Sequence record: MN384978.1
Length of the DNA: 43,865 nucleotides
Reading direction: 5' to 3' (one strand)
Source: Escherichia phage vB_EcolP_P433.1
The position numbers and the translations under genes were made by a program. Below, piece after piece: positions 1-41,027 of the stretch; position 1 is the stretch's first letter, and every line of letters starts with the position of its first letter. The notes under the pieces were generated by a model, which worked only from the letters and a program-made list of their open reading frames with translations, ran no database searches and had not been told where the DNA came from.

Positions 1-885
1 TTACTTAGTTAATTCTTCTACTGCCTCAGAGATTAAAGGCCATGCCTCGTGTCCTTCACCGTAACCCAGTTTAACCAGTTCGCGGCGTGCCTTGTTAACT
101 GCTGTTTTCTTCGTTGCCTCTTCAGCGCTCAAACCCAAGCGGGCGTAGAAGCAAGAAGATTTGAACTGCGGAAGCATAGGCGCGGCTGCCTTCTTGCTTT
201 CGCGTGCACTGGTTAGCGCGGCGATGCGGTCATTAGCTGCCTGTAATTGCTCAGTAAGTGCCTTAATCTGTGCCAGTAGGCCAGCCATAGCGGCGTGCTC
301 AGTGTTAGCCGTGTTATCAAGTGGGGCGGCTTTTGGCGCTTCAGGCTTGCTTTCCTCTTCCCAAGGTGCTGATTCGTCGTTGTCCGGCTCGCTCACGGGT
401 GGCACTGCCTGCGGCTCTTGCGTTTCCTGTGATTCTGCGGCATCAGCCGCGTTCTCCTGCGGTTTTACTGTCTCTGCCTTAGATTGTACCATCTCGGCCT
501 TCGGCTCTTTCTTAGGCTCAATCAGGACGTTTACGGCGTTAGTATCCAGCTTGCCACCTGCGGCGAGTTCTGCGGCCTTCTCCATGATAATATCCTCATC
601 AGCGAAAGGAACAAGCGCCAACATTACACGCATCGCCACGCCTTTGAAGCGGTCATCACCCTCAAAGACACGCGCTACGCTCATCAGCTTGTAACATTGT
701 GCCTTCTTGATGCCGAATTCTGATTCTACATAAGCTAAAAAGTCTTTTTGACCTTCAAAGTCACCGCGTAGCTCATTCAGACAAGATCCAACCCGAAGAT
801 AAGAAGTGCCGATATTGTCTAAGTGTTGTTTGATCTCAGCGGTTGCAGCTTCACGAACAGAAACGAGGATGTTTTCAGTAGTCAT
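1..885 (-). CDS. hypothetical early protein (294 aa)
   Basis: Minus-strand ORF whose stop codon is window positions 1-3; ATG at 885 preceded by AGGTGA RBS; acidic and Pro/Glu-rich central region; no recognisable domain. Sits directly upstream of the RNA polymerase if the window is circular. Confidence 0.55.
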   Translation of the reverse strand: MTTENILVSVREAATAEIKQHLDNIGTSYLRVGSCLNELRGDFEGQKDFLAYVESEFGIKKAQCYKLMSVARVFEGDDRFKGVAMRVMLALVPFADEDIIMEKAAELAAGGKLDTNAVNVLIEPKKEPKAEMVQSKAETVKPQENAADAAESQETQEPQAVPPVSEPDNDESAPWEEESKPEAPKAAPLDNTANTEHAAMAGLLAQIKALTEQLQAANDRIAALTSARESKKAAAPMLPQFKSSCFYARLGLSAEEATKKTAVNKARRELVKLGYGEGHEAWPLISEAVEELTK

Positions 886-1078: not shown

Positions 1079-1414
1079 TCACTCTTCTTCCTCTTCTTCG
1101 TCTTCATACCAAACCACATCACTGTCATTTGGTACATCATTATAAAGCGCCTCATAAATGCGAGCCTGTAGGATCTTGGTTACATCCTTGGTGTCAGGGA
1201 TCAAGCCGGCATCATCGAATTCAATATCAATCCCGTCGGCCGCCATCACAGTAAAGATTTCATGATAATAGTGCGGTACGTTGTCATCTACAACCTCATG
1301 CAGCGCATCAGAATAATCATCATCTTCACGGATATGATCATACTGAATGCGCTCGTTGAACGCTTCAACAGTTGCAGCCAAAAGGTTGTAGTAAGCGTTA
1401 GCATTGCGTTCCAT
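1079..1414 (-). CDS. ocr: Ocr-like DNA-mimic anti-restriction protein (T7 gene 0.3 homolog, 111 aa)
   Basis: Very acidic protein ending in a poly-Glu run; the segment [44 protein letters not shown] closely matches T7 Ocr as remembered ([45 protein letters not shown]); GAGGA RBS before the ATG at 1414. Confidence 0.8.
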   Translation of the reverse strand: [111 protein letters not shown]

Positions 1415-1987: not shown

Positions 1988-2107
1988 ATGGTGATACCTC
2001 ATTTAATAAGTAATACCACGGCATACACAGGTTACACTAAGCAAATTGTTAAAGAGCAAGGTAACTTAGTTACCTACCGTTTGGCTATGTTGCCTCCCGA
2101 TGGCTGT

Positions 2108-2136
2108 AATGTACTGCGAGTTATTGCCTGTGTCAA
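2108..2136 (-). promoter_or_regulatory. host sigma70-type early promoter (TTGACA-N17-TACATT)
   Basis: -35 TTGACA (rc of 2131-2136), 17-bp spacer, -10 TACATT (rc of 2108-2113); same hexamers as the promoter at 1559-1587. Confidence 0.5.
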
Positions 2137-2202
2137 CACTAAATTTCACTAAGATAGATTATTTATGTGATACCTGTCACAACTGCTAGATAATCCTAGG
2201 TT

Positions 2203-2218
2203 GTCTAACATGTTAGAC
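2203..2218. repeat. perfect 16-bp palindrome GTCTAACATGTTAGAC
   Basis: Read directly; A-for-C variant of the GTCTCAC-NN-GTGAGAC palindrome family found at six other sites. Confidence 0.5.
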
Positions 2219-2359
2219 TAAGGAAAAGCAATAGATACAAGGCTAGGATAGGTTAGGCGGGCTAGGCTTCTGGTGTCCCTCCTACTGCATCTTATTACTA
2301 TTCTCTTTCTTTAGCGGTCTACCGACCGCGACCTATTCGCATCTTATAGCGTAGCTATG

Positions 2360-2650
2360 CAATCACTAAGATAAGGCACTAAGGCTTACTAAGGCACACT
2401 ACTAAGTCACTACTAAGGTAAGAACTAAGGCTTTAACTAAGGCAACCCACTAAGGTTAGCATAAGCTATCCCTCAGGTTTATACCAAGGATATACGAGCG
2501 CGGTGAGTGTAGCGTAACGTAGTGTAGCGAAACGAACAGATATCCCACCAACGTCCACCCTGTCAATACCTCATAAACGCCCTGAATGGCCTCAGGAGTG
2601 CACTAAGAGGCTTCACTAAGGCAATCACCTTGTCCATCACTAAGCCAACC
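2360..2650. repeat. array of at least 11 ACTAAG(G) heptamer repeats (CCTTAGT on the coding strand) in two clusters
   Basis: Copies read at about 2365, 2377, 2389, 2402, 2413, 2424, 2438, 2452, 2601, 2616 and 2640 in a non-coding region; resembles the CCTAAAG heptamer arrays next to T7 terminal repeats. Confidence 0.6.
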
Positions 2651-2844
2651 CTAGGCCTTCCTAGGCCGCCTACCGCGTTCCACCTTGCTAGTACATAGGA
2701 AAGCCTGGGCCTGTACCAGTTCACTAGTACACTCCCAAGGCCACCCTATGGGGGACATCCCGGCGAGGGCGAGGGCGAGACACCTCACACACGCCTATAT
2801 CAAAATTTTGACTTTGGTTAATCCTTGTACAACACTAAGGTTTC

Positions 2845-2940
2845 CTACACTTCAGTCTTAAGTGCACAAGCTATTGCTACAGGAAGAATACAGAAACCTA
2901 CACATACACCTAAGAGGAAACTAATCAATTCTACTAACAT
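2845..2940 (-). CDS. possible small hydrophobic peptide (31 aa, MLVELISFLLGVCVGFCILPVAIACALKTEV)
   Basis: ATG at 2940 preceded by AGGAGG at 5-nt spacing; single predicted transmembrane helix; starts 14 nt after the upstream small ORF. Confidence 0.3.
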   Translation of the reverse strand: MLVELISFLLGVCVGFCILPVAIACALKTEV

Positions 2941-2954
2941 GTTACCTCCTTTGA

Positions 2955-3110
2955 TTACACTAAGTCGAATCCCTTGGGTTGCTTCAGGTAAGCCTGTACA
3001 GTTCCACCAAGAACCTTCTGGCTAGCCAGTGCAGACTCTTCAGTGTCATGTATCTTCCTGAGTACCTTACGTTTGAATGGGCCGACTCCATAAGTATGAA
3101 TCCAAATCAT
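2955..3110 (-). CDS. possible small protein (51 aa, MIWIHTYGVGPFKRKVLRK...)
   Basis: ATG at 3110 preceded by AGGAGG at 4-nt spacing; just downstream of the last tailspike gene. Confidence 0.3.
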   Translation of the reverse strand: MIWIHTYGVGPFKRKVLRKIHDTEESALASQKVLGGTVQAYLKQPKGFDLV

Positions 3111-3134
3111 CAAACCTCCTTAGTACTACATCAA

Positions 3135-3152
3135 GGCAGACCGAAGCCTGCC
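3135..3152 (-). terminator. stem-loop GGCAGGC-UUCG-GUCUGCC 10 nt after the tailspike stop
   Basis: 7-bp stem with UUCG tetraloop on the minus-strand transcript; no strong U-tract, so terminator function is uncertain. Confidence 0.3.
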
Positions 3153-3161
3153 ATTTGTGTA

Positions 3162-4619
3162 TTAGTAAACCAACTTAACCCTGTACGCCACAGCCCTGTT
3201 ACCAGAAGTGCCGACACGAGAAATACGAAGTGTACCCTCAGGGTTTATCTTTGTGCTCACTGGCTCAGCCGCAGTACCATCGATTGATGCAATGGCAACA
3301 ATAGTTGCAGCAGCGAGTGCCTTGGTTCTCAAGCCTACATCGACAAACGTAAGACCATCAGGGATGATAGCAACACCTTCCTGTAAGTCAGGGTGGGTAG
3401 GGCTGTCAACACTTGTTAGCTTACACTGTGGCGTAGTCAGGGTTACGCCTACTACATGAGAGCAGCCACGCAAATGCAGTGAGCTATTCCCCATGTTGCT
3501 AATTAGCATCACGTTATTTGTACGAGTACCCAAGAAGTCACAGTCAGTCGCAGTGATACCCTCCACAGAATCGATAAGGAGATCACCCTGCTGGGCTGAG
3601 TCAATATCATTGAACTGGAATGTTACATTGGTCAGACGCATGTTCTTAGGTGCATTAGCCCCACGCTTAGTGACATACAAACCAAAGTAGCGGCTGTCAG
3701 AGATACAAGTACCATTGATACGCAGGTTGTCACAAGCGCCAACCACTTCGATGCACGCTTCACTGCCAGAGTGGTTTGAAGAGTAGTAACCGAAGTCAAT
3801 CTTCACATCTTTGGCATCCTCCAGATACAGCGCCTGTCCACCTGCAAGGTCACTCATGCAGGAGTTGAACCACGTCCAGCGAGTCCCTATGATCTCAATA
3901 GCCTTACGATTCTTGGCGCTGTTGCCACATGAGTAGACTAGCTCATTTGTGAACATCAAACCCTCTGTGACACTAGAAACACCTGCAGACACGTCTTCAC
4001 TTGCATGGATAGCAGTATAACAATCAGAGTACGTGTTGTTGAAGAAGTGAGAGTTGATCTGTCCACCACCAGAGAATACCGCATAGTTGCTTGCTGCAAA
4101 GCGGTTATTCTGGATAGTAAGCTCAGCTGATGATTTACCTTTCTCACAGAAGACGCACGCATCGTAGAATGCAAACGAGTTGTCGCGCACAGTGATTAGC
4201 GGGCCTTCGATACGGATTGCCATAGTGTTGTTGCTATCCTTTCCGCCACCTACGAAGTTCAGACCTTCGATAACAGTGAATGCCGCACGAGGTATCAGAG
4301 TGGAGCCATTGTGTGTCTTCAATGTTGCACCGTACTTACCATCACTATATAGCCGGATGGCAGATGTAATTATAAGGTCAGTTACAATGTATGGCGTGTC
4401 TTTAGGCGGAACATAGACACCAGCACCCATACCTCCTGCGCGATATGCTGCTTTGATAGCTGCACGGAACGCAGGTGTGTCATCGGTAACACCATCACCC
4501 TTTGCACCAAAATCGGTGACACTAATCTGCTCACTAAGCTTCTCAGGGAGCAGTCTCAGAATAGCTGCATCGTATAGCGCCTTGTATTTCACGAAGGCAG
4601 CACCTAGCTTTTGAATCAT
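3162..4619 (-). CDS. tailspike, probable depolymerase with pectate-lyase-like right-handed beta-helix (485 aa)
   Basis: N-terminal motif ISVTDFGAKGDGVTDDTPAFRAAIKAA typical of beta-helix glycanases; AGGAGGG RBS before the ATG at 4619; position at the genome right end as in SP6/K1-5-type phages. Confidence 0.75.
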   Translation of the reverse strand: MIQKLGAAFVKYKALYDAAILRLLPEKLSEQISVTDFGAKGDGVTDDTPAFRAAIKAAYRAGGMGAGVYVPPKDTPYIVTDLIITSAIRLYSDGKYGATLKTHNGSTLIPRAAFTVIEGLNFVGGGKDSNNTMAIRIEGPLITVRDNSFAFYDACVFCEKGKSSAELTIQNNRFAASNYAVFSGGGQINSHFFNNTYSDCYTAIHASEDVSAGVSSVTEGLMFTNELVYSCGNSAKNRKAIEIIGTRWTWFNSCMSDLAGGQALYLEDAKDVKIDFGYYSSNHSGSEACIEVVGACDNLRINGTCISDSRYFGLYVTKRGANAPKNMRLTNVTFQFNDIDSAQQGDLLIDSVEGITATDCDFLGTRTNNVMLISNMGNSSLHLRGCSHVVGVTLTTPQCKLTSVDSPTHPDLQEGVAIIPDGLTFVDVGLRTKALAAATIVAIASIDGTAAEPVSTKINPEGTLRISRVGTSGNRAVAYRVKLVY

Positions 4620-4703
4620 GTACCCTCCTTTTCTGAAAGGCTACCACCATGATAACCTTTAAGAAAAGTTGCGTATAAGCGCGGCGTAAGCCGCGACTGT
4701 CTA

Positions 4704-6758
4704 TTATAACCATTCAGGCACAATAACCTCTCCCATTGAGAAGTTTGCTGCCTCACCTTCTCTACTGCACAAACGATACTTCTTATCTACTACTTCCCGT
4801 GTGTCTGTAGAAACTATGTTGTAGCAGATGTTATTAGCTGCTCTATGAACATAAGAATTTACTACTGGCTTACTTCCATCACCTTTTGCACGCGTACCAT
4901 CAATGAAGCAAGATTCTACAAGTAACAGGCCAGCAACTAAGTTGTTGCCTGTATCCCAGTCCAATATAGTCTCATTAAACTCTACACGACCTTGTGCATA
5001 AGTGGTTCCACCAGAGTAGCCTGCAAATCGACGAACGATACCACCTTTATTCTTGATGTAACTACGAGTATTGAAAGTGACAAGGTTCTTGTATTCAATA
5101 TCCATATTACATTCAAAACCTATAATACAACTTGCATATTCGTTACGATAACCTATATAAGCATCAACCTTACAACCTTTAGAGTAAGCAGGTGTAAGTT
5201 TTACAATAGGAACTTCACGAGTTGTTGCATCATGATATGATAGCGCGTATTCATAGCGGGCATTCTTTCCATGGAATACACTCCCTGTGAAGTCTATCAG
5301 TGTAGGCATCACAAAGTCACGCAATATAGGTGACACACTAGTCTTGAAGTTATTCTTGTAAGATACAATATTCAAGGTAACAGCATCAGGCCAGTGGATC
5401 TCTGATTCCACTATAATCTTACGAGGAAGATGCAATGCGCGAGGTTGAACCGGATTACCAGATGATAACACATTATCAGAACGGCACAGAATAAGGTCAA
5501 CAATACCTGTCTTTCCTTCTGGTACTCGTATGCTACCACCTTTGACAATAATGTCACCTTTGTGCTCACCATAATCAGTACGAACACCAAAGGACATAAT
5601 GTTGGAGTTAATGATACGAGTCTGCTCATCGAAGGCACCAGTGCCAACTAAGACACCTTCTTTTACAGTAGAATTATCTACTAGAACTCCAGAGGAGCCG
5701 TAGTGTAAGTGAAAGCTAGGGACAACAGAGTCACGAAGTACCACATCACGGCAGTAGTTACCATCAGCGAAACGCCATCCAGAACCACATGTGCAACCTA
5801 AGAAGGAATGCTTCAATGTATATTCCATAAGGATGGAATAACGAGAGTTATTATCAGGCTGAGGCCCGCCACTCATATTAACATGCCAGTTGACACCATA
5901 TGTATCTCCGCTTGATAATATGCTACGATCAACAGGTACTGAAATGTTACTATCAACCACGCCGTACACATTTACCTTAGAGCGAGTAATGTTGAATGCC
6001 CACTTTGTAACTGCGCCTTTGAACTTAGGAAGCACAACAGTGATGTACGATGCAGGCAACTTATACAAGGTGCAAGTAACACCGCTATTATATGTGTTCT
6101 TGAATGTATAAGCCAGATTACCTGACTTAGTCATCAAGTTAACCTCACATTTCATTCTGGCATCATATCTACCATTAAGGTAGCGATAAAGATCAACCTC
6201 TTGGCTGGTGATCTTAACCAAACTATTATCCCAGCCATCAAGACTTTCTGACACATTAAGTTGATTACTTAACTCTGTCAAAGGGTAGTTAATTACAGTG
6301 AAAGACTTAGACACATCAGTTCGCTCATCTGCCAATGTAACATTGCCACCTGTTAGGTTAAATGTCAAATTACTCAAGTCCATGTCACCATATAGTGTCA
6401 CGTCCTTGTTGATATTAATCTCGGTAGGTACAGAAGCGTAAACCTTGATACCATAACCTCTCAGTTGAGAAAATACCGTATTTAGGCCATCTGCATCTTT
6501 GGTAGGTAAGAGGGTAAGAAGATCAACACCTTTGGATGTGTCAATAATTGAAGTCCACTTACCTTCACCAATACCTTCTGTGAAGGGACTTGAACCGGGA
6601 TTCACAGTATGAGGGTAATCACCAGACCATACATAAATGTCTCTATTAAACAGGAACATATCAGCCATGCCTTGTGCCACACCACCACCCTCAAAGGTGT
6701 TTAATGTTGGTACATTAAGACTGAGTACATTACGTCCTGCACGTGTTAATCCAGCCAT
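4704..6758 (-). CDS. tailspike / receptor-binding protein (about 684 aa)
   Basis: Large Ser/Thr/Asn/Gly-rich ORF; the track start at 6818 is TTG, so the start is placed at the ATG at 6758 with TAGGAG RBS; directly downstream of the phage promoter at 6838-6860. Confidence 0.7.
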   Translation of the reverse strand: MAGLTRAGRNVLSLNVPTLNTFEGGGVAQGMADMFLFNRDIYVWSGDYPHTVNPGSSPFTEGIGEGKWTSIIDTSKGVDLLTLLPTKDADGLNTVFSQLRGYGIKVYASVPTEININKDVTLYGDMDLSNLTFNLTGGNVTLADERTDVSKSFTVINYPLTELSNQLNVSESLDGWDNSLVKITSQEVDLYRYLNGRYDARMKCEVNLMTKSGNLAYTFKNTYNSGVTCTLYKLPASYITVVLPKFKGAVTKWAFNITRSKVNVYGVVDSNISVPVDRSILSSGDTYGVNWHVNMSGGPQPDNNSRYSILMEYTLKHSFLGCTCGSGWRFADGNYCRDVVLRDSVVPSFHLHYGSSGVLVDNSTVKEGVLVGTGAFDEQTRIINSNIMSFGVRTDYGEHKGDIIVKGGSIRVPEGKTGIVDLILCRSDNVLSSGNPVQPRALHLPRKIIVESEIHWPDAVTLNIVSYKNNFKTSVSPILRDFVMPTLIDFTGSVFHGKNARYEYALSYHDATTREVPIVKLTPAYSKGCKVDAYIGYRNEYASCIIGFECNMDIEYKNLVTFNTRSYIKNKGGIVRRFAGYSGGTTYAQGRVEFNETILDWDTGNNLVAGLLLVESCFIDGTRAKGDGSKPVVNSYVHRAANNICYNIVSTDTREVVDKKYRLCSREGEAANFSMGEVIVPEWL

Positions 6759-6837
6759 ATAATCTCCTATTACTTCCCAACCCTCACCATGAAGATTGGC
6801 TAGTAATAGGCCGCTCAAAAGAACGGCACTATCTTAT

Positions 6838-6860
6838 CCCTCCTATAGTGTCCAGTAAAT
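6838..6860 (-). promoter_or_regulatory. phage RNAP promoter ATTTACTGGACACTATAGGAGGG
   Basis: Read as reverse complement on the plus strand; 23-nt match to the SP6-type core GACACTATAG; upstream of the first tailspike gene. Confidence 0.75.
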
Positions 6861-6889
6861 TATAAGACACTGATACATAAAGCTATGTA

Positions 6890-7087
6890 TTAATTGTATC
6901 CGCGTTCTAGCGAAAGAATGTACAAACCTAATTTTGTAGCGTCAGGCTTACTGAAGCAGACCTTATCGTCCACCTCGTAAACTGCCGTCAGCGTCGGCTT
7001 CAGTGGCCTTACCTTTGGAGTCTCTGGTAACTCCGTCTGACACCCTGAAGTGATCAGCGAACCAATCAGCAGGGTTGTCGCTAGCAT
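6890..7087 (-). CDS. small lipoprotein, candidate o-spanin (65 aa from the internal ATG)
   Basis: MLATTLLIGSLITSGC is a signal peptide plus lipobox-like Cys, followed by a Pro-rich stretch (LPETPKVRPLKPT); GAGG RBS before the ATG at 7087; lies in a different frame overlapping ORF 6963-7184. Confidence 0.4.
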   Translation of the reverse strand: MLATTLLIGSLITSGCQTELPETPKVRPLKPTLTAVYEVDDKVCFSKPDATKLGLYILSLERGYN

Positions 7088-7176
7088 GATTCGCCTCACT
7101 CTGTGCCTCCTTCTCTTCCTTCTTCTTCTTAGCGGCAAGCAGCAGACCAATAAGGCCTGCCAATAACTCAAGCACC

Positions 7177-7326
7177 TTATTCACAAGTGATTACTTGGCA
7201 TACCACGTCAGTGACGGAACCTTCCGTACCTTCACCAAGGTCTACACCAAGACCTACAGAGACAAGTGCAATCACCAGTGCAATCAATGCACCTACCACC
7301 TTCTTAGACTTAAACAGCTTTTTCAT
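7177..7326 (-). CDS. small membrane protein (49 aa, MKKLFKSKKVVGALIALVIALVSVGLGVDL...), possible holin/antiholin or spanin N-terminal part
   Basis: Not in the ORF track; ATG at 7326 preceded by AGGGAG RBS; one clear transmembrane helix; immediately downstream of the endolysin gene. Confidence 0.4.
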   Translation of the reverse strand: MKKLFKSKKVVGALIALVIALVSVGLGVDLGEGTEGSVTDVVCQVITCE

Positions 7327-7830: not shown

Positions 7831-8118
7831 TCACTCAGCGGGGGTAACAGCAGTTACTTCCATGGTAGTGGCATCCCATGGTGACTCAGGCAGTGCATCT
7901 CGTGCTACAGCGATATACAGCGAACCCTCTGCTTTCTTCACAGCAACCATGGCACCTTTTTGTTTACCAGAAAGGTGGTGGATGTTAATCGGGTGCGCTT
8001 TAGATTTAAGGTCTGCCTCTGCTACCACCGGTAATGGCAGTGCAGTTGCAATAGTTTGAACATCCTTAACACGGAAGGATTGCCCGGTTACAGTGTTTGC
8101 ATCTCCATACTTAGCCAT
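7831..8118 (-). CDS. hypothetical protein (96 aa)
   Basis: Start placed at the internal ATG at 8118 (MAKYGDANTV) because of the AAGAGGAG RBS; track ORF extended to 8199. Confidence 0.45.
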   Translation of the reverse strand: MAKYGDANTVTGQSFRVKDVQTIATALPLPVVAEADLKSKAHPINIHHLSGKQKGAMVAVKKAEGSLYIAVARDALPESPWDATTMEVTAVTPAE

Positions 8119-8134
8119 ATCTATTCTCCTCTTA

Positions 8135-8416
8135 TTATACTGGAACAATACTTTCTGCTGTCTTTGTCTGATCCCACTCACTTGTAGGTCCACTTCCACG
8201 AGACAACATCAGCACTCCCTCTTCTGTTACAATCATAGCTCCAATTTGCTTACCAGACTTTGTTGTGTCATTAATAACACTAGCTTGCTTTGCTGGATTA
8301 TATAAGGCATTATCAGTGTTAACACTTGGAACCATTAAGTGTTCACTAACTGGTTGTACCTGTTTTCTGTCATATCGGCCTGTAAGTGGCTGATTACTGT
8401 ATTCGTTAGCCATCAT
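8135..8416 (-). CDS. hypothetical protein (93 aa)
   Basis: ATG at 8416 with TAGGAG RBS; first gene downstream of the promoter at 8548-8570. Confidence 0.45.
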   Translation of the reverse strand: MMANEYSNQPLTGRYDRKQVQPVSEHLMVPSVNTDNALYNPAKQASVINDTTKSGKQIGAMIVTEEGVLMLSRGSGPTSEWDQTKTAESIVPV

Positions 8417-8547: not shown

Positions 8548-8570
8548 TCCTTCTATAGTGTCCAGTAATT
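8548..8570 (-). promoter_or_regulatory. phage RNAP promoter AATTACTGGACACTATAGAAGGA
   Basis: Read as reverse complement; overlaps the terL stop codon; followed by a 130-nt AT-rich leader. Confidence 0.7.
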
Positions 8571-9300
8571 AATAAGTCCTTGAAATCCTTGCAGAAATGG
8601 TGTTTCGATTGGAAGACTTACTCCGGTAATTTTGCCCATACACTCGCCGCTGCATCGCCACAGAAGTGTTGGTTACTTTTCGCTCAGTCCCGTAATCTCC
8701 ATAGAGCATGGCCCTGCGGAGGTGAGGTGTGTTCATAGCTTGGATGTAATCGCGCATCTCTTGCGCTCTGAGGCGATTAATCCGTGTAACCTCATCATAG
8801 TCTATCTGAGAAGTTAATTGCCGTATAGCGCCGTACAGAGCGTCTAAGCGGTCATCGTGCCGGAGGCTGTTCTTCTCGATCGTGATGTTCGACATTTGAT
8901 TGAAAAGGCTATAGGACATGCGTAGCTCAAGCGGATAGTTCTGTACTGACTCAAAGTCAGACTTGACCATCTCAGCATTGAAGATGAGCCTGTGGGCCGC
9001 CATGAGTGGCTCCAGTGTCTCAATGATACGCAACTCTTTCTGTCCTGTGGCGTAATCCTCTTCCAGCGTTACAGGCCACTCTCGTTCAAAGTACGGCTTA
9101 ATTACGGCCTCAAACGCGCCATGACCGAAGTTTTTCTCTATGAATACCTCTTTAACACCCGCCTGCTTTGCGGACTGCACAATGCGATTCAGGGACGATT
9201 CGCGGTATCCACCCGGTACACCGAAGCACTGATACACGTAAATGAATGTGCCGTGCAGGAAGACAATCGCTACACCCGTTTCGTCCCCGTTCTTACCTCC
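8569..9300 (-). CDS. terL: terminase large subunit, exon 2 (nuclease domain, 243 aa)
   Basis: Frame begins GGKNGDETGVAIVFLHG, i.e. mid-way through the conserved nuclease motif, with no ATG or RBS of its own; in frame with exon 1 if the 9301-10046 insert is spliced out. Confidence 0.7.
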   Translation of the reverse strand, partial: GGKNGDETGVAIVFLHGTFIYVYQCFGVPGGYRESSLNRIVQSAKQAGVKEVFIEKNFGHGAFEAVIKPYFEREWPVTLEEDYATGQKELRIIETLEPLMAAHRLIFNAEMVKSDFESVQNYPLELRMSYSLFNQMSNITIEKNSLRHDDRLDALYGAIRQLTSQIDYDEVTRINRLRAQEMRDYIQAMNTPHLRRAMLYGDYGTERKVTNTSVAMQRRVYGQNYRSKSSNRNTISARISRTY

Positions 9301-9826
9301 CGGTTTGAACGTGACGTGCGAGCCAACCCTTGTGGTGTTTACGCAAACCACGTGCCACCTTACGCATATTCTGAGGTGTTAGGTTGTGCTCTTTACAGAA
9401 GTCAGTAATGCAAGTTACAAGAAACTCTTCACCATCTGGAGAAGTGAATATGTAATCTTTGCCAGTACCTTTGTTGTAAGGTGTCATGCCTTTCTTGAAC
9501 TCAGTAGCAACAGACAAGTGCTGTCCTTTCTTTATTTCAGTGGCAATACTTATGCGTTCACCTTTCTCGATGTTACCTGCTTTGCGATAACCACCTTTAC
9601 CCTTATTCCAACCAATGTTGTCATGTGGGCGTAGCTTTTCTTCTAGTGCATAACACTCTTCTTTGCTACCAGTGAATAAGATAACGTACTCGCGGCCATC
9701 ACAAAGACGGCCTGCGCACTTGTGCTCTCTCATACGCTTCTTAATATCGGAGGTTACACCAATATAACCTTGCATTACATCAGTTTCACCAACAACACGA
9801 ATATGATAAACTTTATGCTCTGTCAT
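9293..9826 (-). CDS. GIY-YIG homing endonuclease (177 aa) encoded inside the terL intron
   Basis: KVYHIRVV...GYIGVT...RMREH GIY-YIG module at the N-terminus; NUMOD3-like repeats (ISIATEIKKGQHLSVATEFKKG); AGGGAG RBS before the ATG at 9826; stop codon lies 8 nt inside terL exon 2. Confidence 0.8.
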   Translation of the reverse strand: MTEHKVYHIRVVGETDVMQGYIGVTSDIKKRMREHKCAGRLCDGREYVILFTGSKEECYALEEKLRPHDNIGWNKGKGGYRKAGNIEKGERISIATEIKKGQHLSVATEFKKGMTPYNKGTGKDYIFTSPDGEEFLVTCITDFCKEHNLTPQNMRKVARGLRKHHKGWLARHVQTGR

Positions 9827-10046
9827 ATTTAACTCCCTTCAATTGTTACGTTAATTCGCTACTTTAACTTCCACTAGTCACCTAGTGGGTCGGACTATAT
9901 CTTAGGCTTGCGCCTCCCTCTGTTTCAGACCGCTTGGCCTTACAGTTAGTCTCTACACGTTCCTATCATTGCAACAGGCTTCGCTCGGTATTGTCTCAGT
10001 GAGAGTTCCACCGAATTAAGAGGGTTTTACGCTGGCAGAGGTGTTT
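9301..10046 (-). mobile_element. putative group I intron (746 nt) interrupting terL
   Basis: P1 pairing between exon end GCUGGU and internal guide GCCAGC; P10 pairing between exon-2 start GGAGG and CCUCU; terminal G at 9301; R-like AGAGACUAACUG (rc of 9943-9954) and S-like AAGAUAUAGUCC (rc of 9891-9902) core elements; splicing restores one 632-aa terminase frame. Confidence 0.65.
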
Positions 10047-11213
10047 ACCAGCAGGGTCAATATACATAATCTTACGGGTAACAGCACCCCATTCATACGG
10101 TCGGGCCACAGGCCGATACATGACATCTGTAGGCTTATTGCCATACTTCGGTGCGTCGCCAATGATGTTAATAGAATCATTGCTCCACGTAGGCATCACA
10201 GGAACTTCCTCTGTACCGAATGAAGTGAAGATGAGGTTGTTCAAGCGAAGTGGGTAGCGGTCAGCGTCCATCATGCGAGTGTTAAGCATAAACTGAAGCT
10301 GGAACTTAGCCGCACCCTGCGATATTTCCTTCTCGATCAGGACATCATCATCATACATTTCAGGTGCACAAGGAGCACCACTGTTACCGTCTAACCCATA
10401 ACCAGAGCGAAGTGCTGGGTTATCCTTCATATCCTGCACAATCATAGGCGCAAGGAAGTCACCATAGCATTGCTCCTGCTCCACTGAAGGGTAACGTGCA
10501 GTCCAGATACGAACAGAGTAACCACGAGCAGGTAAGTTATTGTAGATAGAGTTTACGTTCTGAGGTGTACCAAGGTAGATAATATCACCAAACTGGTTGA
10601 TAGATTCAAACTCTTTGGTCAATTCCTCAAGTAAGGCACGGCCTGCTGCTGTACGAGCATTCTGCATCGACTCAACGTCATCTGCAAGGATGATATCTGC
10701 ACGAGCACCCTGCATGCCTGCTTCGATTGAATAGCAGGATACAGAAGGTGACTTATCGCTACCACGTAAAGTGTAGTGAATCTCGAATGCCTTAACGGAT
10801 GCACGGTCTCCTGCGTAAATATCCGGTAACATAAACTCAAGGAAGTCTAAGCCACGAAAGATTTTAACTACCCAACCTGCGATTTCCTCTGCTCGCTTGG
10901 CGTTTTGGGATACAACCATTATACGCTTATGCGGTTCATGGATAATACGGAATACCGTATAGATTGCTGATAGTGTTGTCTTAGCGATACCACGAGGCGC
11001 TTCGATGAGTCGATACTTGTGTCCGTAGAATAGGAACTTCAAGATATCAGCCTGCATACGAATCAGATGAGGGTTGCCTGCAATCAAGTTATGAATAACT
11101 GTGTCTGCAAAGAGAAGCAAACCTTCCGCTGTATAGGGAAAGGTCTGCTGTAGTTCCTGTAGCATCTCCCATCTGGCAAGAGCCTCCGCTTGTGATTCTC
11201 TTGCCTTAGCCAT
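10047..11213 (-). CDS. terL: terminase large subunit, exon 1 (ATPase domain, 389 aa)
   Basis: Walker A PRGIAKTT and Walker B DIILADDVE; ends ...KIMYIDPAG at the proposed 5' splice site; the track ORF continues 16 codons into the intron before a stop at 9996. Confidence 0.75.
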
Positions 11214-11701: not shown

Positions 11702-12664
11702 CTATGCAGTAATCACGTTAACAGACATGTGGCAAGCAGGTACACCCTCAGAGAAAGTAATTACACTACCATTAATTTGATATGTAGACATAGGTTGGAA
11801 TAACCCATCTAAGTACACATCAATGTGCTTGAATGCCACTCCTAAGTTCACTTCAGTAGTGCCTTCCTCTAAATCTTTATTGAACTCGATGAAGGCATTA
11901 GGTGCTGAGGTTGCAGTGCGACTACCAATAAGTACGTAGACTTCTGTGCCTCGCATAAGTGGTTCAGCAAAAGTAATAGTGCTATTAGCCACAGTAACAG
12001 CCTTGGCTAGTTCATGCTGCAAAACACCATTCAGGTACACTAAGGCATCATCAAAAATATAAGGTGGGCGAATTACAGTCTCGCCACCTGCCGCAGTAGT
12101 AAACCAAGGTACGGTTCGGTGTGCAATACCAGAGGTCATGCCTGCTTTCAATCCAGCAATAGCCAAATCTTGCTGGTTGTTCCAGTCTGTATGCTTCTTG
12201 TCAATGGCATCAAGTTGTCCCAAGTTGACTGCATCACCCGGCTCTGTGCCATCTGCAAGGTTTGTAATCTTATTACCACCCCATGACACGTTCTGCTTAA
12301 CGAAGTAGCCTTCTGGGTAAAACCCATCTAGAATCTCTTGGGTTATCTCTAGGATATGAATAAAGGAGCCATTTAAGGACTTCATATCCAGAGCAACACC
12401 GCGGTCAAACTCTGCATATGGGTACTCCTTTTGCACCACCCTTCGAATGCGGAACTTCAAACCCTCAACTGGTGCTACATCAAAAGTAATCTGGTGTGTG
12501 CCAGATAATTGCCAACCAGATGTGATCTCTTCCCAAGATCCAGCTTGGAAAAATTCTACTGTCACATCTGAGGCACGAAGATAACCTTTCTCCCTACCAG
12601 CAAAGCTAAAGGGATAGGTGACTTGCGTACCATCTGCTGTGTGTTCTGTGAAAGTATAACTCAT
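11702..12664 (-). CDS. tail-fibre adaptor protein with T7 gp17 N-terminal-like domain (320 aa)
   Basis: Motif GGNKITNLADGTEPGDAVNLGQL typical of podophage fibre N-terminal domains; follows the internal virion proteins; too short to be a full fibre, so probably anchors the two tailspikes. Confidence 0.7.
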   Translation of the reverse strand: MSYTFTEHTADGTQVTYPFSFAGREKGYLRASDVTVEFFQAGSWEEITSGWQLSGTHQITFDVAPVEGLKFRIRRVVQKEYPYAEFDRGVALDMKSLNGSFIHILEITQEILDGFYPEGYFVKQNVSWGGNKITNLADGTEPGDAVNLGQLDAIDKKHTDWNNQQDLAIAGLKAGMTSGIAHRTVPWFTTAAGGETVIRPPYIFDDALVYLNGVLQHELAKAVTVANSTITFAEPLMRGTEVYVLIGSRTATSAPNAFIEFNKDLEEGTTEVNLGVAFKHIDVYLDGLFQPMSTYQINGSVITFSEGVPACHMSVNVITA

Positions 12665-24652: not shown

Positions 24653-24675
24653 CCCTTCTATAGTGTCCAGTAAAT
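24653..24675 (-). promoter_or_regulatory. phage RNAP promoter ATTTACTGGACACTATAGAAGGG (capsid promoter)
   Basis: Read as reverse complement; lies between the scaffold and capsid genes. Confidence 0.8.
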
Positions 24676-32675: not shown

Positions 32676-32698
32676 CTCTTCTATAGTGTCCAGTAAAT
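32676..32698 (-). promoter_or_regulatory. phage RNAP promoter ATTTACTGGACACTATAGAAGAG
   Basis: Read as reverse complement; preceded 16 bp upstream by the palindrome at 32714-32729. Confidence 0.75.
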
Positions 32699-33950: not shown

Positions 33951-33973
33951 TTGTTCTATAGTGTCCAGTAATT
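33951..33973 (-). promoter_or_regulatory. phage RNAP promoter AATTACTGGACACTATAGAACAA
   Basis: Read as reverse complement; overlaps the 3' end of the 125-aa ORF, upstream of the SSB-like gene. Confidence 0.65.
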
Positions 33974-34413: not shown

Positions 34414-34436
34414 TCCTTCTATAGTGTCCAGTAAAT
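34414..34436 (-). promoter_or_regulatory. phage RNAP promoter ATTTACTGGACACTATAGAAGGA
   Basis: Read as reverse complement; about 70 nt downstream of the DNA polymerase stop. Confidence 0.75.
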
Positions 34437-38453: not shown

Positions 38454-40442
38454 TCAGAACTCACTTTCTTCATCGAAGCCGGTCTCTTCTATAGTGTCCG
38501 GTAAATCCGGTACTTCTTGTTGCCTTGCTTCCCCTGTATCAAATGACTTAGTACGGGCTTGTGGTTCCATTAAACGTCCGGTTTGAATGTCACCCTTAAG
38601 CATGACCTTGGTTCCAGTGTAGATACCTTGGTCGCGGTCTTTGACACATGAGATGTACGTGGTAGTCCTTTCATCAAGCGTTTCAGCTCTTGTATTACGC
38701 TCAATCCCCAAGGCGTAAGATGCCCAGAATCCGATAGCACCTGAGCCTCGGAAGTCAGAAAGGATAACTTCGCCACCTTCTTCGTGCTGGACTCGGTTTC
38801 CCGCAGGGCGAGTAAGGTGCGAGACAAGGAATATAGTAACTGGGTGTCTGTCTTTGATAGTACCAATCCGCTTGACGCATTCATCAAGTGCACCAACCTT
38901 CCCACCAAAAGCACGCTCATCTAATTTAATCCCCGTTAAGTTATCAATGATGATATTAGAAATACCCATAGCCTCAAACTCAAGGCAAGTCTGCTCTACC
39001 TTCTCCATTGAGTAGTCACCTTCTAGGTCAGCTACGAAGAGCTTCCCTGTATCAGCGACATAGTCAATGGCAGCATTAGCTTCTTCCTCAGTATAGTCGA
39101 ACACCTCGCGGTATCCATCTTCTTTCGGGTCGTTGGTTGGCGGTAGTTCAATACGCTTATCAATCCACTTGCCGATAAAAGCACGAGACACTTTGACCAT
39201 CGGGTCTTCTGTAGAAATAATGCCTACGGATTCACCGTGTTCTTCGATGAGGTGCTTAACCACTTCACGGAGGAACTCAGTCTTACCTACACCAGAGCCT
39301 GCGCCTACAATGATAAGCTGGTTCTTACGGATACCTAGCGTTACTTTGTTCAGCTTAGGCCAAGGCCATGACAGCCCTTGCTCTGGTCGTGCGGCCTTAA
39401 GTTTATCCCTTTGAGATGCAATAGATTTAATCTGGCTACCAAAGACTTCATCAGACGACTTGGCATTAAACCACGCATCTACAAATTCTTTAGCCTTGCC
39501 AGCCATCAATGCCTTATTGGCATCTTTGCACCCAGAAGGGTACTCAAGAATATAGGATTTGCCGGGAAAGAGGCGAGCCGCTTGTTGGTTCTGCTTCTGC
39601 CCTACTTCATCCCCATCGAAGCCCCAAATAATCTTCTTGAATTGGGCGATGTGTTCACGGTTCTGCACAATCTCTTCAAGGCAAGATTCACCCTTATTAA
39701 CAGACCATACGTGGTAGGGCTGGCCTTCCCACTTAGTGCCTTTGGCAGAATCAAGGAGCATCTGTTGTGCTGCTAGTGCATCAAGCTCTCCGCCTACAAT
39801 AAGCAAGCAATCCTTCCGTCTTCCCTTGTCTAACACGTGAGACAAAGTATTCATACCGAAAAGATCTTGCATACCAAAGAGCTTACCTAGGTGACCAAAC
39901 TTAAAGTCTTTAGGTAAGGTACGGCACTTAGCGCCTACTAGCTCACCTCTCTCGAAGCGTGGATAGTAATGCCGTGAGACTCTACCCTCTTCATCGTGTC
40001 CGACACGTACATCATACAATGCGCAAATGTCGCCGCGAATGTGTCGGGAAACAAGATTCTTACGCTTAAGCGTGAGGAACCATTCAACATCAAGTTTCCA
40101 CTCTGCTTCTTGGTCTGCCCTTTCTTGCTCATTCATGACCTCCCAACGGTCTTTCATACGCATACCACCAAGTGCGATGGCTCGCAGCTTAGGGTCGCTT
40201 ATCTTCCCTTCCCTCTCCATCTCTTTGAATTGAGAAGGTGTGTATTTTATGTTGCCAGTAATAGGCAACTCGGTGATCTCGATACCGCCGTCTGGCTTGT
40301 GGTAGTATGGCTTGCCATTATCATGGAAGTGACCACGGTTACAATAGCCAGCACCATCATCAAATATCATGAGATGGTTGCCGGATTTATCGTGTCCATT
40401 CTTCTGGCAAGCAGGGCACGGGATGTTATTAATAATAGCCAT
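38454..40442 (-). CDS. DNA primase-helicase, T7 gp4-like (662 aa)
   Basis: N-terminal zinc ribbon CPACQ...YCNRGHF; helicase Walker A GAGSGVGKTEF; acidic C-terminal tail ending in Phe (...TGFDEESEF) as in T7 gp4. Confidence 0.9.
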   Translation of the reverse strand: MAIINNIPCPACQKNGHDKSGNHLMIFDDGAGYCNRGHFHDNGKPYYHKPDGGIEITELPITGNIKYTPSQFKEMEREGKISDPKLRAIALGGMRMKDRWEVMNEQERADQEAEWKLDVEWFLTLKRKNLVSRHIRGDICALYDVRVGHDEEGRVSRHYYPRFERGELVGAKCRTLPKDFKFGHLGKLFGMQDLFGMNTLSHVLDKGRRKDCLLIVGGELDALAAQQMLLDSAKGTKWEGQPYHVWSVNKGESCLEEIVQNREHIAQFKKIIWGFDGDEVGQKQNQQAARLFPGKSYILEYPSGCKDANKALMAGKAKEFVDAWFNAKSSDEVFGSQIKSIASQRDKLKAARPEQGLSWPWPKLNKVTLGIRKNQLIIVGAGSGVGKTEFLREVVKHLIEEHGESVGIISTEDPMVKVSRAFIGKWIDKRIELPPTNDPKEDGYREVFDYTEEEANAAIDYVADTGKLFVADLEGDYSMEKVEQTCLEFEAMGISNIIIDNLTGIKLDERAFGGKVGALDECVKRIGTIKDRHPVTIFLVSHLTRPAGNRVQHEEGGEVILSDFRGSGAIGFWASYALGIERNTRAETLDERTTTYISCVKDRDQGIYTGTKVMLKGDIQTGRLMEPQARTKSFDTGEARQQEVPDLPDTIEETGFDEESEF
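38484..38506 (-). promoter_or_regulatory. phage RNAP promoter ATTTACCGGACACTATAGAAGAG inside the 3' end of the primase-helicase gene
   Basis: CCG sub-class at -12 to -10; lies within the last codons of the helicase ORF. Confidence 0.6.
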
Positions 40443-41004: not shown

Positions 41005-41027
41005 TTCTCCTATAGTGTCCGGTAAAT
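41005..41027 (-). promoter_or_regulatory. phage RNAP promoter ATTTACCGGACACTATAGGAGAA
   Basis: First phage promoter downstream of the polymerase gene; CCG sub-class. Confidence 0.7.

Follow-up and report, generated by a model that had tools for sequence, protein, structure and literature searches.

The window analysed here, 43,865 nucleotides of sequence record MN384978.1, is the whole genome, as its reverse complement, of Escherichia phage vB_EcolP_P433.1, a Vectrevirus whose host is the ETEC strain P433. At the right end of the genome, downstream of the endolysin, holin and spanin genes lie, in this order, two large adjoining tailspike genes (table 1), here called spike 1 and spike 2; both open reading frames, like that of the adaptor, were confirmed where the original prediction had placed them, with homologues at E = 0 for spike 1 and down to 1e-197 for spike 2. 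Published work places the phage among the Vectreviruses, near K1-5 (PMC13493500), and in our backbone comparison its structural genes are 83–85% identical to those of Vectreviruses; tailspikes go unmentioned in the P433.1 paper. The large terminase gene contains a group I intron with a homing endonuclease, 98.7% identical to that of K1E, a phage that has the same kind of adaptor system as P433.1 in addition to this intron; because of the K1E copy, the intron was dropped as a novelty.

Table 1. Features of the two-spike cassette and of the adaptor gene in P433.1 (nucleotide positions refer to the window; aa, residues of the respective protein)
Feature	Position	Strand	Remarks
Putative phage-RNA-polymerase promoter, ATTTACTGGACACTATAGGAG	6840-6860	-	81 nt before the ATG of spike 1
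Tailspike 1	4704-6758	-	684 aa; gp46 position
Docking heptapeptide MAGLTRA, spike 1	nt 6738-6758	-	gp46-type
Divergent Tail_spike_N (PF18668)-like domain, spike 1	aa ~20-72, nt ~6543-6701	-	
Predicted right-handed beta-helix body, spike 1	aa ~112-535		Followed by a C-terminal beta domain
Inter-spike linker, conserved	4620-4703	-	84 nt; holds hairpin and spike 2 ribosome-binding site
G+C-rich terminator-like hairpin in linker	4680-4695		
Tailspike 2	3162-4619	-	485 aa; gp47 position
Docking undecapeptide MIQKLGAAFVK, spike 2	nt 4587-4619	-	gp47-type; short helical neck next
Pectate-lyase-like beta-helix, spike 2	aa ~31 to ~410		
C-terminal beta-sandwich, spike 2	aa ~412-485		
Hairpin directly downstream of spike 2, cassette end	3135-3152	-	
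Adaptor, homologue of K1-5/SP6 gp37	11702-12664	-	320 aa; gp17 position; PF03906, PF05662 and DUF4183 matches

The mechanical reading frame of spike 1 spans 4704–6818 and opens at a TTG; this start was dropped for the ATG at 6758, which is preferred because of its ribosome-binding site (AGGAG, 5 nt upstream) and its conserved N-terminus. The start MA-x-LT-[KR] is common to the gp46-position proteins of K1-5, LL11, CrRp3, PSK8 and the relative in contig L006, and the heptapeptide of P433.1 agrees with that of K1-5 (MAKLTKP) at four of seven positions and with that of CrRp3 at five of seven. Past these first residues, a direct comparison with the K5 lyase found no similarity. Homologues of spike 1 share 55–60% identity with it; no characterised enzyme is closer than ~55%, and the relatives are without known substrate. 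Searches by sequence gave no match among solved structures at E <= 1 and none in NCBIfam. Structure prediction, proposed earlier as a check on both spikes, yielded a confident beta-helix tailspike model for each, and among the closest structural neighbours of the predicted spike 1 model, spikes of the capsule or LPS lyase type predominate. Relatives of spike 1 occur in 3 of 5426 complete E. coli genomes (65% nucleotide identity, 55% of the query); these three carry no serotype information, and the attempt to deduce a target serogroup from them yielded nothing.

Spike 2, which is preceded by the sequence AAGGAGGG, is 100% identical to protein P4331_8. Its undecapeptide is identical to MIQRLGSSLVK of K1-5 and SP6 at 7 of 11 positions, two of the four differences being conservative (R/K, L/F); in SP6 this peptide appears when the reading frame is read from an upstream ATG. 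Residues 32–252 match PF12708 (Pect-lyase_RHGA_epim) at 46 bits, the cut-off being 27, so the pectate-lyase-like signature that had been claimed for this protein is genuine. The predicted model resembles hydrolase-type and epimerase/lyase-type helices alike. Relatives of spike 2 were found in none of the 5426 complete E. coli genomes, no characterised enzyme is closer than ~35–40% identity, and here too the relatives have no known substrate.

BLASTP between the two spikes returned nothing significant, and their GC contents differ. Prophage homologues of the spikes are also carried by a set of Enterobacter hormaechei genomes. The two spikes have no N-terminal segment in common, so that the shared adaptor-binding segment for which the original prediction proposed to look is absent: each spike has its own position-specific peptide. 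The docking roles of the heptapeptide and undecapeptide go back to Leiman et al. 2007, as cited in PMC6872550. The unrelated sequences of the spikes are consistent with two receptor specificities.

The protein at the gp17 position had been described as 320 residues long with just an N-terminal fibre domain. Its length and this domain stand: PF03906, the T7 gp17-like tail-attachment domain of Pfam (T7 tail fibre N-terminal domain), covers residues 3–153, with a short YadA-stalk-like segment at 132–157. The "just" does not, as residues ~190–320 appear to carry two further small domains, putatively for docking, with a DUF4183 match at 205–242. Residues 190–248 and 261–311 match locally to the N-terminal parts of fibres and spikes of solved structure, and the C-terminal domains resemble branching regions of solved fibre or tailspike chains (9k4a residues 191–249; 7rej residues 191–241), all of which is consistent with a C-terminal half made of two small repeated domains; in adaptors of the K1-5/SP6 type the C-terminal docking domains have been described as T4gp10-like (PMC6872550). 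The protein is 76% identical to K1-5 gp37 across 320 of 320 residues and 94% identical to the adaptor of phage PSK8. Identity to K1-5 drops from 82–93% over residues 1–180 to 56–69% over residues 181–320. It also matches chain e of PDB 7y22, a "tail adaptor protein", with E 2.5e-87; an attribution of this entry to Klebsiella phage Kp9 was dropped, as a preprint points to Kp7, not Kp9, as the origin of the adaptor. The P433.1 adaptor has no receptor-binding C-terminus and falls within the ~300–320 residues that characterise adaptors of this system.

The window has eight matches to the 21-mer at 6840–6860, every one of them on the minus strand, against a chance expectation of 0, and we infer that it works as the promoter of the spike cassette. 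A promoter sought in the 84-nt linker was absent there. The linker of K1-5 is 85 nt long, and in LL11 the equivalent site is annotated "terminator". Across the cassette, DNA homology to K1-5, LL11, CrRp3 and SP6 is found only in three places: the block 6745–7299 (86–93% identical to K1-5, LL11 and CrRp3), the block 4581–4706 (86–93% identical to K1-5, LL11, SP6 and CrRp3), and positions <=3130, where homology to other Vectreviruses picks up again. It thus covers no more than the first 4–5 codons of spike 1 and the first 13 of spike 2. Judged from these alignments, the classic cassette junctions are the promoter together with the opening codons of spike 1, the linker, and the stretch that follows spike 2. 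Related contigs indicate that the spikes are reshuffled independently: contig L006, from read set SRR26665439, combines the same spike 1 (98% amino acid identity) with a different N-terminus at the gp47 position, and contig L007 has a relative of spike 2 (60%) beside a different spike at the gp46 position.

Adaptors with two spikes have been on record from K1-5, K1E and SP6 since 2002–2017, so that the arrangement in P433.1 is nothing new in principle. K1-5 is likewise a Vectrevirus, with the same gene order, a gp37 adaptor that also has 320 residues, a promoter ahead of gp46, a hairpin in its linker and both types of docking peptide. The spike bodies differ: those of K1-5 are the K5 lyase (gp46) and the K1 endosialidase (gp47), and those of P433.1 are unrelated to either. 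The K5 lyase is without a Tail_spike_N-like domain, whereas spike 1 has one between the heptapeptide and the helix, and K1-5 gp47 has 811 residues against the 485 of spike 2, to which the extra K1-5 sequence does not align. SP6, a Zindervirus with ~76% backbone identity to P433.1, shares the adaptor and two-spike architecture and the conserved junctions, although its spikes, a P22-like endorhamnosidase (gp46) and a serogroup C2/C3 spike (gp47), have unrelated bodies; it provides the model of V-paired spikes whose rotation depends on the host (PMC6966330). In G7C gp66 and gp63.1 and in CBA120 TSP1-4, Tail_spike_N (PF18668) is the N-terminal domain of spikes that dock on a branch, and spike 1 has a divergent copy of it. 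The T4 gp10-like docking domains of these phages also appear to have matching domains in the P433.1 adaptor, but there the platform for docking belongs to a larger spike, whereas in P433.1 it is a stand-alone adaptor without a receptor-binding domain of its own.

All hallmarks of the K1-5/SP6 type that can be tested by sequence are present, and the K1-5-type adaptor arrangement proposed originally is borne out by the gp37 identity, the docking peptides, the promoter, the linker and the two unrelated beta-helix bodies. Very probably, the adaptor and the two spikes form the receptor-recognition apparatus of a K1-5/SP6-type podovirus, docking and cassette exchange included. In such an apparatus, trimers of the adaptor would join the tail via the T7 gp17-like N-terminal domain, and the C-terminal half would offer two separate docking sites, one taken by spike 1 through MAGLTRA and the other by spike 2 through MIQKLGAAFVK, so that two different trimeric beta-helix spikes would form a V at each of the six tail positions. 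Both spike genes would be transcribed late from the one phage promoter, and the linker hairpin may attenuate read-through into spike 2. We further infer that both spikes are carried on the virion as active enzymes with two receptor specificities: each would bind, and most probably cleave, a different surface polysaccharide, the candidate targets on ETEC P433 being the K101 capsule and the O20 O-antigen. For the Smith and Huggins phage set, the resistance determinant listed is capsular polysaccharide (PMC6070868); a literature search for K101 or O20 depolymerases turned up only the host serotype. The spike bodies would be exchangeable cassettes, with recombination at the three conserved junctions swapping each independently and thereby re-targeting the phage.

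It is possible, though on balance unlikely, that the spikes act serially on one host, the K101 capsule being stripped before the O20 O-antigen is engaged, so that host range is not widened. The isolation host has both antigens, its serotype being O20:K101:987P (PMC6909661), and the reported host range is narrow, other E. coli serotypes in the published panel being uninfected (PMC13493500); that panel revealed no second host. The lyase-type neighbours of spike 1 and the hydrolase- and epimerase/lyase-like helix of spike 2 would also suit serial use, but such fold matches cannot tell substrates apart, and the spikes of K1-5 and SP6 serve alternative hosts, with one engaging at a time (PMC6966330). 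Moreover, homologues of spike 1 are found in P22-like prophages and the tailspikes of P22, HK620 and Sf6 bind O-antigen (PMC6966330), which fits poorly with spike 1 as a capsule spike.

We consider it improbable that only one of the spikes is functional, the other being a passenger from an earlier host association. The precedent is K1E, whose gp46-position protein is truncated and inactive (PMC6966330), and the narrow host range would agree with it; in addition, the copy of spike 1 in L006 is frameshifted, which, if real, means that spike 1 can be dispensable, but misassembly of this metagenomic contig may be the cause. In P433.1, a full spike of 684 residues stands in place of the K1E remnant, neither reading frame is truncated, docking peptides and ribosome-binding sites are intact, the confidently predicted beta-helices are complete, and each family's 24-sequence alignment has many invariant polar and charged positions, with Asp, Glu, Arg, Lys and His among them. 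That one of the genes encodes a soluble, non-structural polysaccharide-degrading enzyme is highly implausible: neither spike has yet been identified in virions and the Pfam family matched by spike 2 is a general glycosidase/epimerase one, but both proteins begin with the position-specific docking peptides of virion spikes, homologous bodies also sit behind other phage anchors (the P22 head-binding domain PF09008 and Tail_spike_N PF18668), and the PHROG matches of both are tail spike or tail fibre families.

Within the favoured reading of an adaptor with two docked spikes, a more elaborate version, which we regard as speculative and rather doubtful, would combine serial use, with removal of the K101 capsule followed by engagement of the O20 O-antigen, with a two-point attachment of spike 1 through both its K1-5-type heptapeptide and its G7C/CBA120-type Tail_spike_N domain. 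If true, this attachment would be a hybrid of the two known docking modes for a second receptor-binding protein.

P433.1 is a historic therapy phage of Smith and Huggins that is back in use in pig trials against ETEC. Its two exchangeable cassettes, with their junctions mapped, show where host range can be engineered or predicted, and the spikes represent two uncharacterised families of candidate depolymerases, for which the K101 capsule or the O20 antigen may be the target.

All long ORFs of the window lie on the minus strand (ORF listing, whole window), in the order RNA polymerase, DNA polymerase, portal, capsid, tail tube, internal virion proteins, 320-aa "fibre", terminase, lysis genes, and two large ORFs, which is the SP6/K1-5 order; early genes, including ocr, occupy the left end. 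The structural block shows 83–85% identity to Vectrevirus genomes (CrRp3, LL11, and others) and ~76% to SP6. The ORF in the gp47 position (spike 2) matches [quoted passage not shown] at 100% identity, and the window is thus this published genome, reverse-complemented and circularly permuted. A physical genome end appears near 2790, with repeat motif TCTCGCCCTCGCCCTCGCC. The 2026 paper on accession MN384978, which makes no mention of tailspikes, describes a Vectrevirus near K1-5, the Smith and Huggins phage against ETEC strain P433; no other E. coli serotype under test could be infected (PMC13493500). The serotype of P433 is O20:K101:987P (PMC6909661).

Features of the P433.1 genome
Feature	Coordinates	Strand	Details
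ocr	1079-1414		early gene
Apparent genome end	near 2790	-	repeat motif
Homology block 3	at or below 3130		downstream of spike 2
Spike 2	3162-4619	-	gp47 position, 485 aa
Homology block 2	4581-4706		linker and first 13 codons of spike 2
Spike 1	4704-6758	-	gp46 position, 684 aa
Homology block 1	6745/6751-7299		lysis genes, promoter, first 4-5 codons of spike 1
Promoter consensus, exact copy	6840-6860	-	one of eight; 0 expected by chance
Other promoter copies	8550-8570, 24655-24675, 32678-32698, 33953-33973, 34416-34436, 38486-38506, 41007-41027	-	consensus match
Small tandem ORFs	8135-8416, 7831-8199	-	phrog_2725
Large terminase	within 8572-11213	-	split gene
Terminase insertion	9301-10046	-	746 nt
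Intron ORF	9293-9826		177 aa
Adaptor	11702-12664	-	320 aa; PF03906 at aa 3-153

The observation of an adaptor with two tailspikes was confirmed, an ORF check recovering the two large ORFs and the gp17-position ORF where the original prediction had placed them, and its K1-5-type interpretation is supported by adaptor homology, docking peptides, and cassette junctions. The adaptor aligns gap-free with K1-5 gp37 across 320 aa (76% identity), is 94% identical to that of PSK8, and is matched by a solved "tail adaptor protein" chain (7y22_e, E 2.5e-87). Identity to K1-5 falls from 82–93% at aa 1–180 to 56–69% at aa 181–320. The predicted length and N-terminal fibre domain (PF03906) held, but not the claim that it carries just that domain: the C-terminal half gives a DUF4183 match and local matches to the N-terminal branching regions of fibres and spikes with solved structures, which would agree with the T4 gp10-like docking domains described for gp37 (PMC6872550).

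In K1-5, the K5 lyase docks by its heptapeptide MAKLTKP at the middle of the adaptor, and the endosialidase by its undecapeptide MIQRLGSSLVK at the C-terminal part (PMC6872550, citing Leiman et al. 2007). The mechanical ORF of spike 1 begins at TTG 6818, a start displaced by ATG 6758, which lies 5 nt after an AGGAG site and yields the conserved gp46-type N-terminus MAGLTRA; this is identical in the metagenomic Vectrevirus contig L006, and the corresponding starts are MAKLTKP (K1-5, LL11), MAGLTKV (CrRp3), and MARLTRP (PSK8). Spike 2 follows a strong ribosome-binding site and begins MIQKLGAAFVK, with 50% identity to K1-5 gp47 over the first 66 aa; LL11, CrRp3, PSK8, L006, a further contig (L007), and SP6 (from an upstream ATG) show the undecapeptide pattern too. 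The RefSeq start of the SP6 second spike (NC_004831, L004:8745-10262) is an internal GTG that leaves out this conserved peptide, whereas a start 30 nt further upstream, at an ATG, yields MIQRLGSSLVK. A shared adaptor-binding segment, proposed as a check, was not found at the two spike N-termini; these are unlike, so that each spike would be addressed to its own adaptor site.

The spike bodies themselves differ. The pectate-lyase-like signature predicted for spike 2 was recovered (PF12708, 46 bits, aa 32–252). For spike 1, Pfam returned nothing above threshold and the solved structures offered no sequence relative. Its homologues include E. coli P22-like prophage tailspikes with a PF09008 head-binding domain (~60% identity), the myovirus ECO1230-10 tail spike (55%), a phage Paul fibre (48%), and a Proteus podovirus PM16 virion protein (41%). 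Alignment places aa 21–72 of spike 1 over the PF18668 Tail_spike_N domain that its homologues carry; the layout is therefore heptapeptide, Tail_spike_N-like domain, and helix. The two spikes share no significant similarity, and their GC contents are 0.408 (spike 1) and 0.480 (spike 2; genome, 0.455); independent acquisition is the simplest reading.

Local blastn of 2000–7300 against K1-5, LL11, CrRp3, and SP6 returned homology in only three blocks, and megablast against 50,697 phage records covered 8–9% of 3000–7000, all at cassette junctions. L006 (Logan, SRR26665439) encodes a 98% identical spike 1, and its gp47-position gene diverges directly past the undecapeptide; L007 carries a 60% identical spike 2 relative behind an unrelated gp46-position spike; PSK8 combines the closest adaptor with two other spike bodies. 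Judged from these sequences, the two spikes appear to reassort independently. The L006 spike 1 copy (L006:5629-7680) is split by frameshifts into 51-aa and 559-aa ORFs; either the contig is misassembled here or the spike is decaying, a situation like that in K1E.

The phage RNA polymerase promoter consensus ATTTACTGGACACTATAGRAG occurs eight times genome-wide, with no copy ahead of spike 2. Because one copy precedes spike 1 and the 84-nt inter-spike linker holds a G+C-rich hairpin at the site annotated as a terminator in LL11, the spikes are probably cotranscribed, perhaps with attenuation between them.

Upstream, the large terminase gene is interrupted at a precise point: in the K1-5 gp40 alignment, a group I intron (Rfam RF00028, 63.6 bits; gathering score 50) separates codon 389 from codon 390. 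Its ORF resembles GIY-YIG and I-HmuI NUMOD-like endonuclease domains weakly, with scores below cut-off. The insertion and the K1E gp40A/40.5/40B intron share 98.7% identity; in K1E, the ORF carries the annotation "putative homing endonuclease". Several Escherichia, Klebsiella, and Salmonella podoviruses also have the intron, which is thus already known. The paralogous small tandem ORFs, counterparts of K1-5 gp41/gp42, have no Pfam match; the label "acetyl-CoA acetyltransferase" of phrog_2725 in PHROGs and related genomes looks doubtful for them.

The adaptor-and-spike architecture encoded by P433.1 is that of K1-5 and SP6; there, cryo-EM revealed six V-shaped spike pairs on gp37, of which only one spike engages at any time (PMC6966330). 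For the Smith and Huggins phages of this set, a review table gives capsular polysaccharide as the resistance determinant (PMC6070868), and P433 bears a K101 capsule as well as O20 antigen; at least one spike is therefore probably a K101 depolymerase. The other may open up an additional host, as in K1-5, or act on another layer of the P433 host itself; in E. coli genome searches, prophage relatives were too few for serogroup correlation. The system is already known and the genome already public; what is new is an uncharacterised pair of spike modules.
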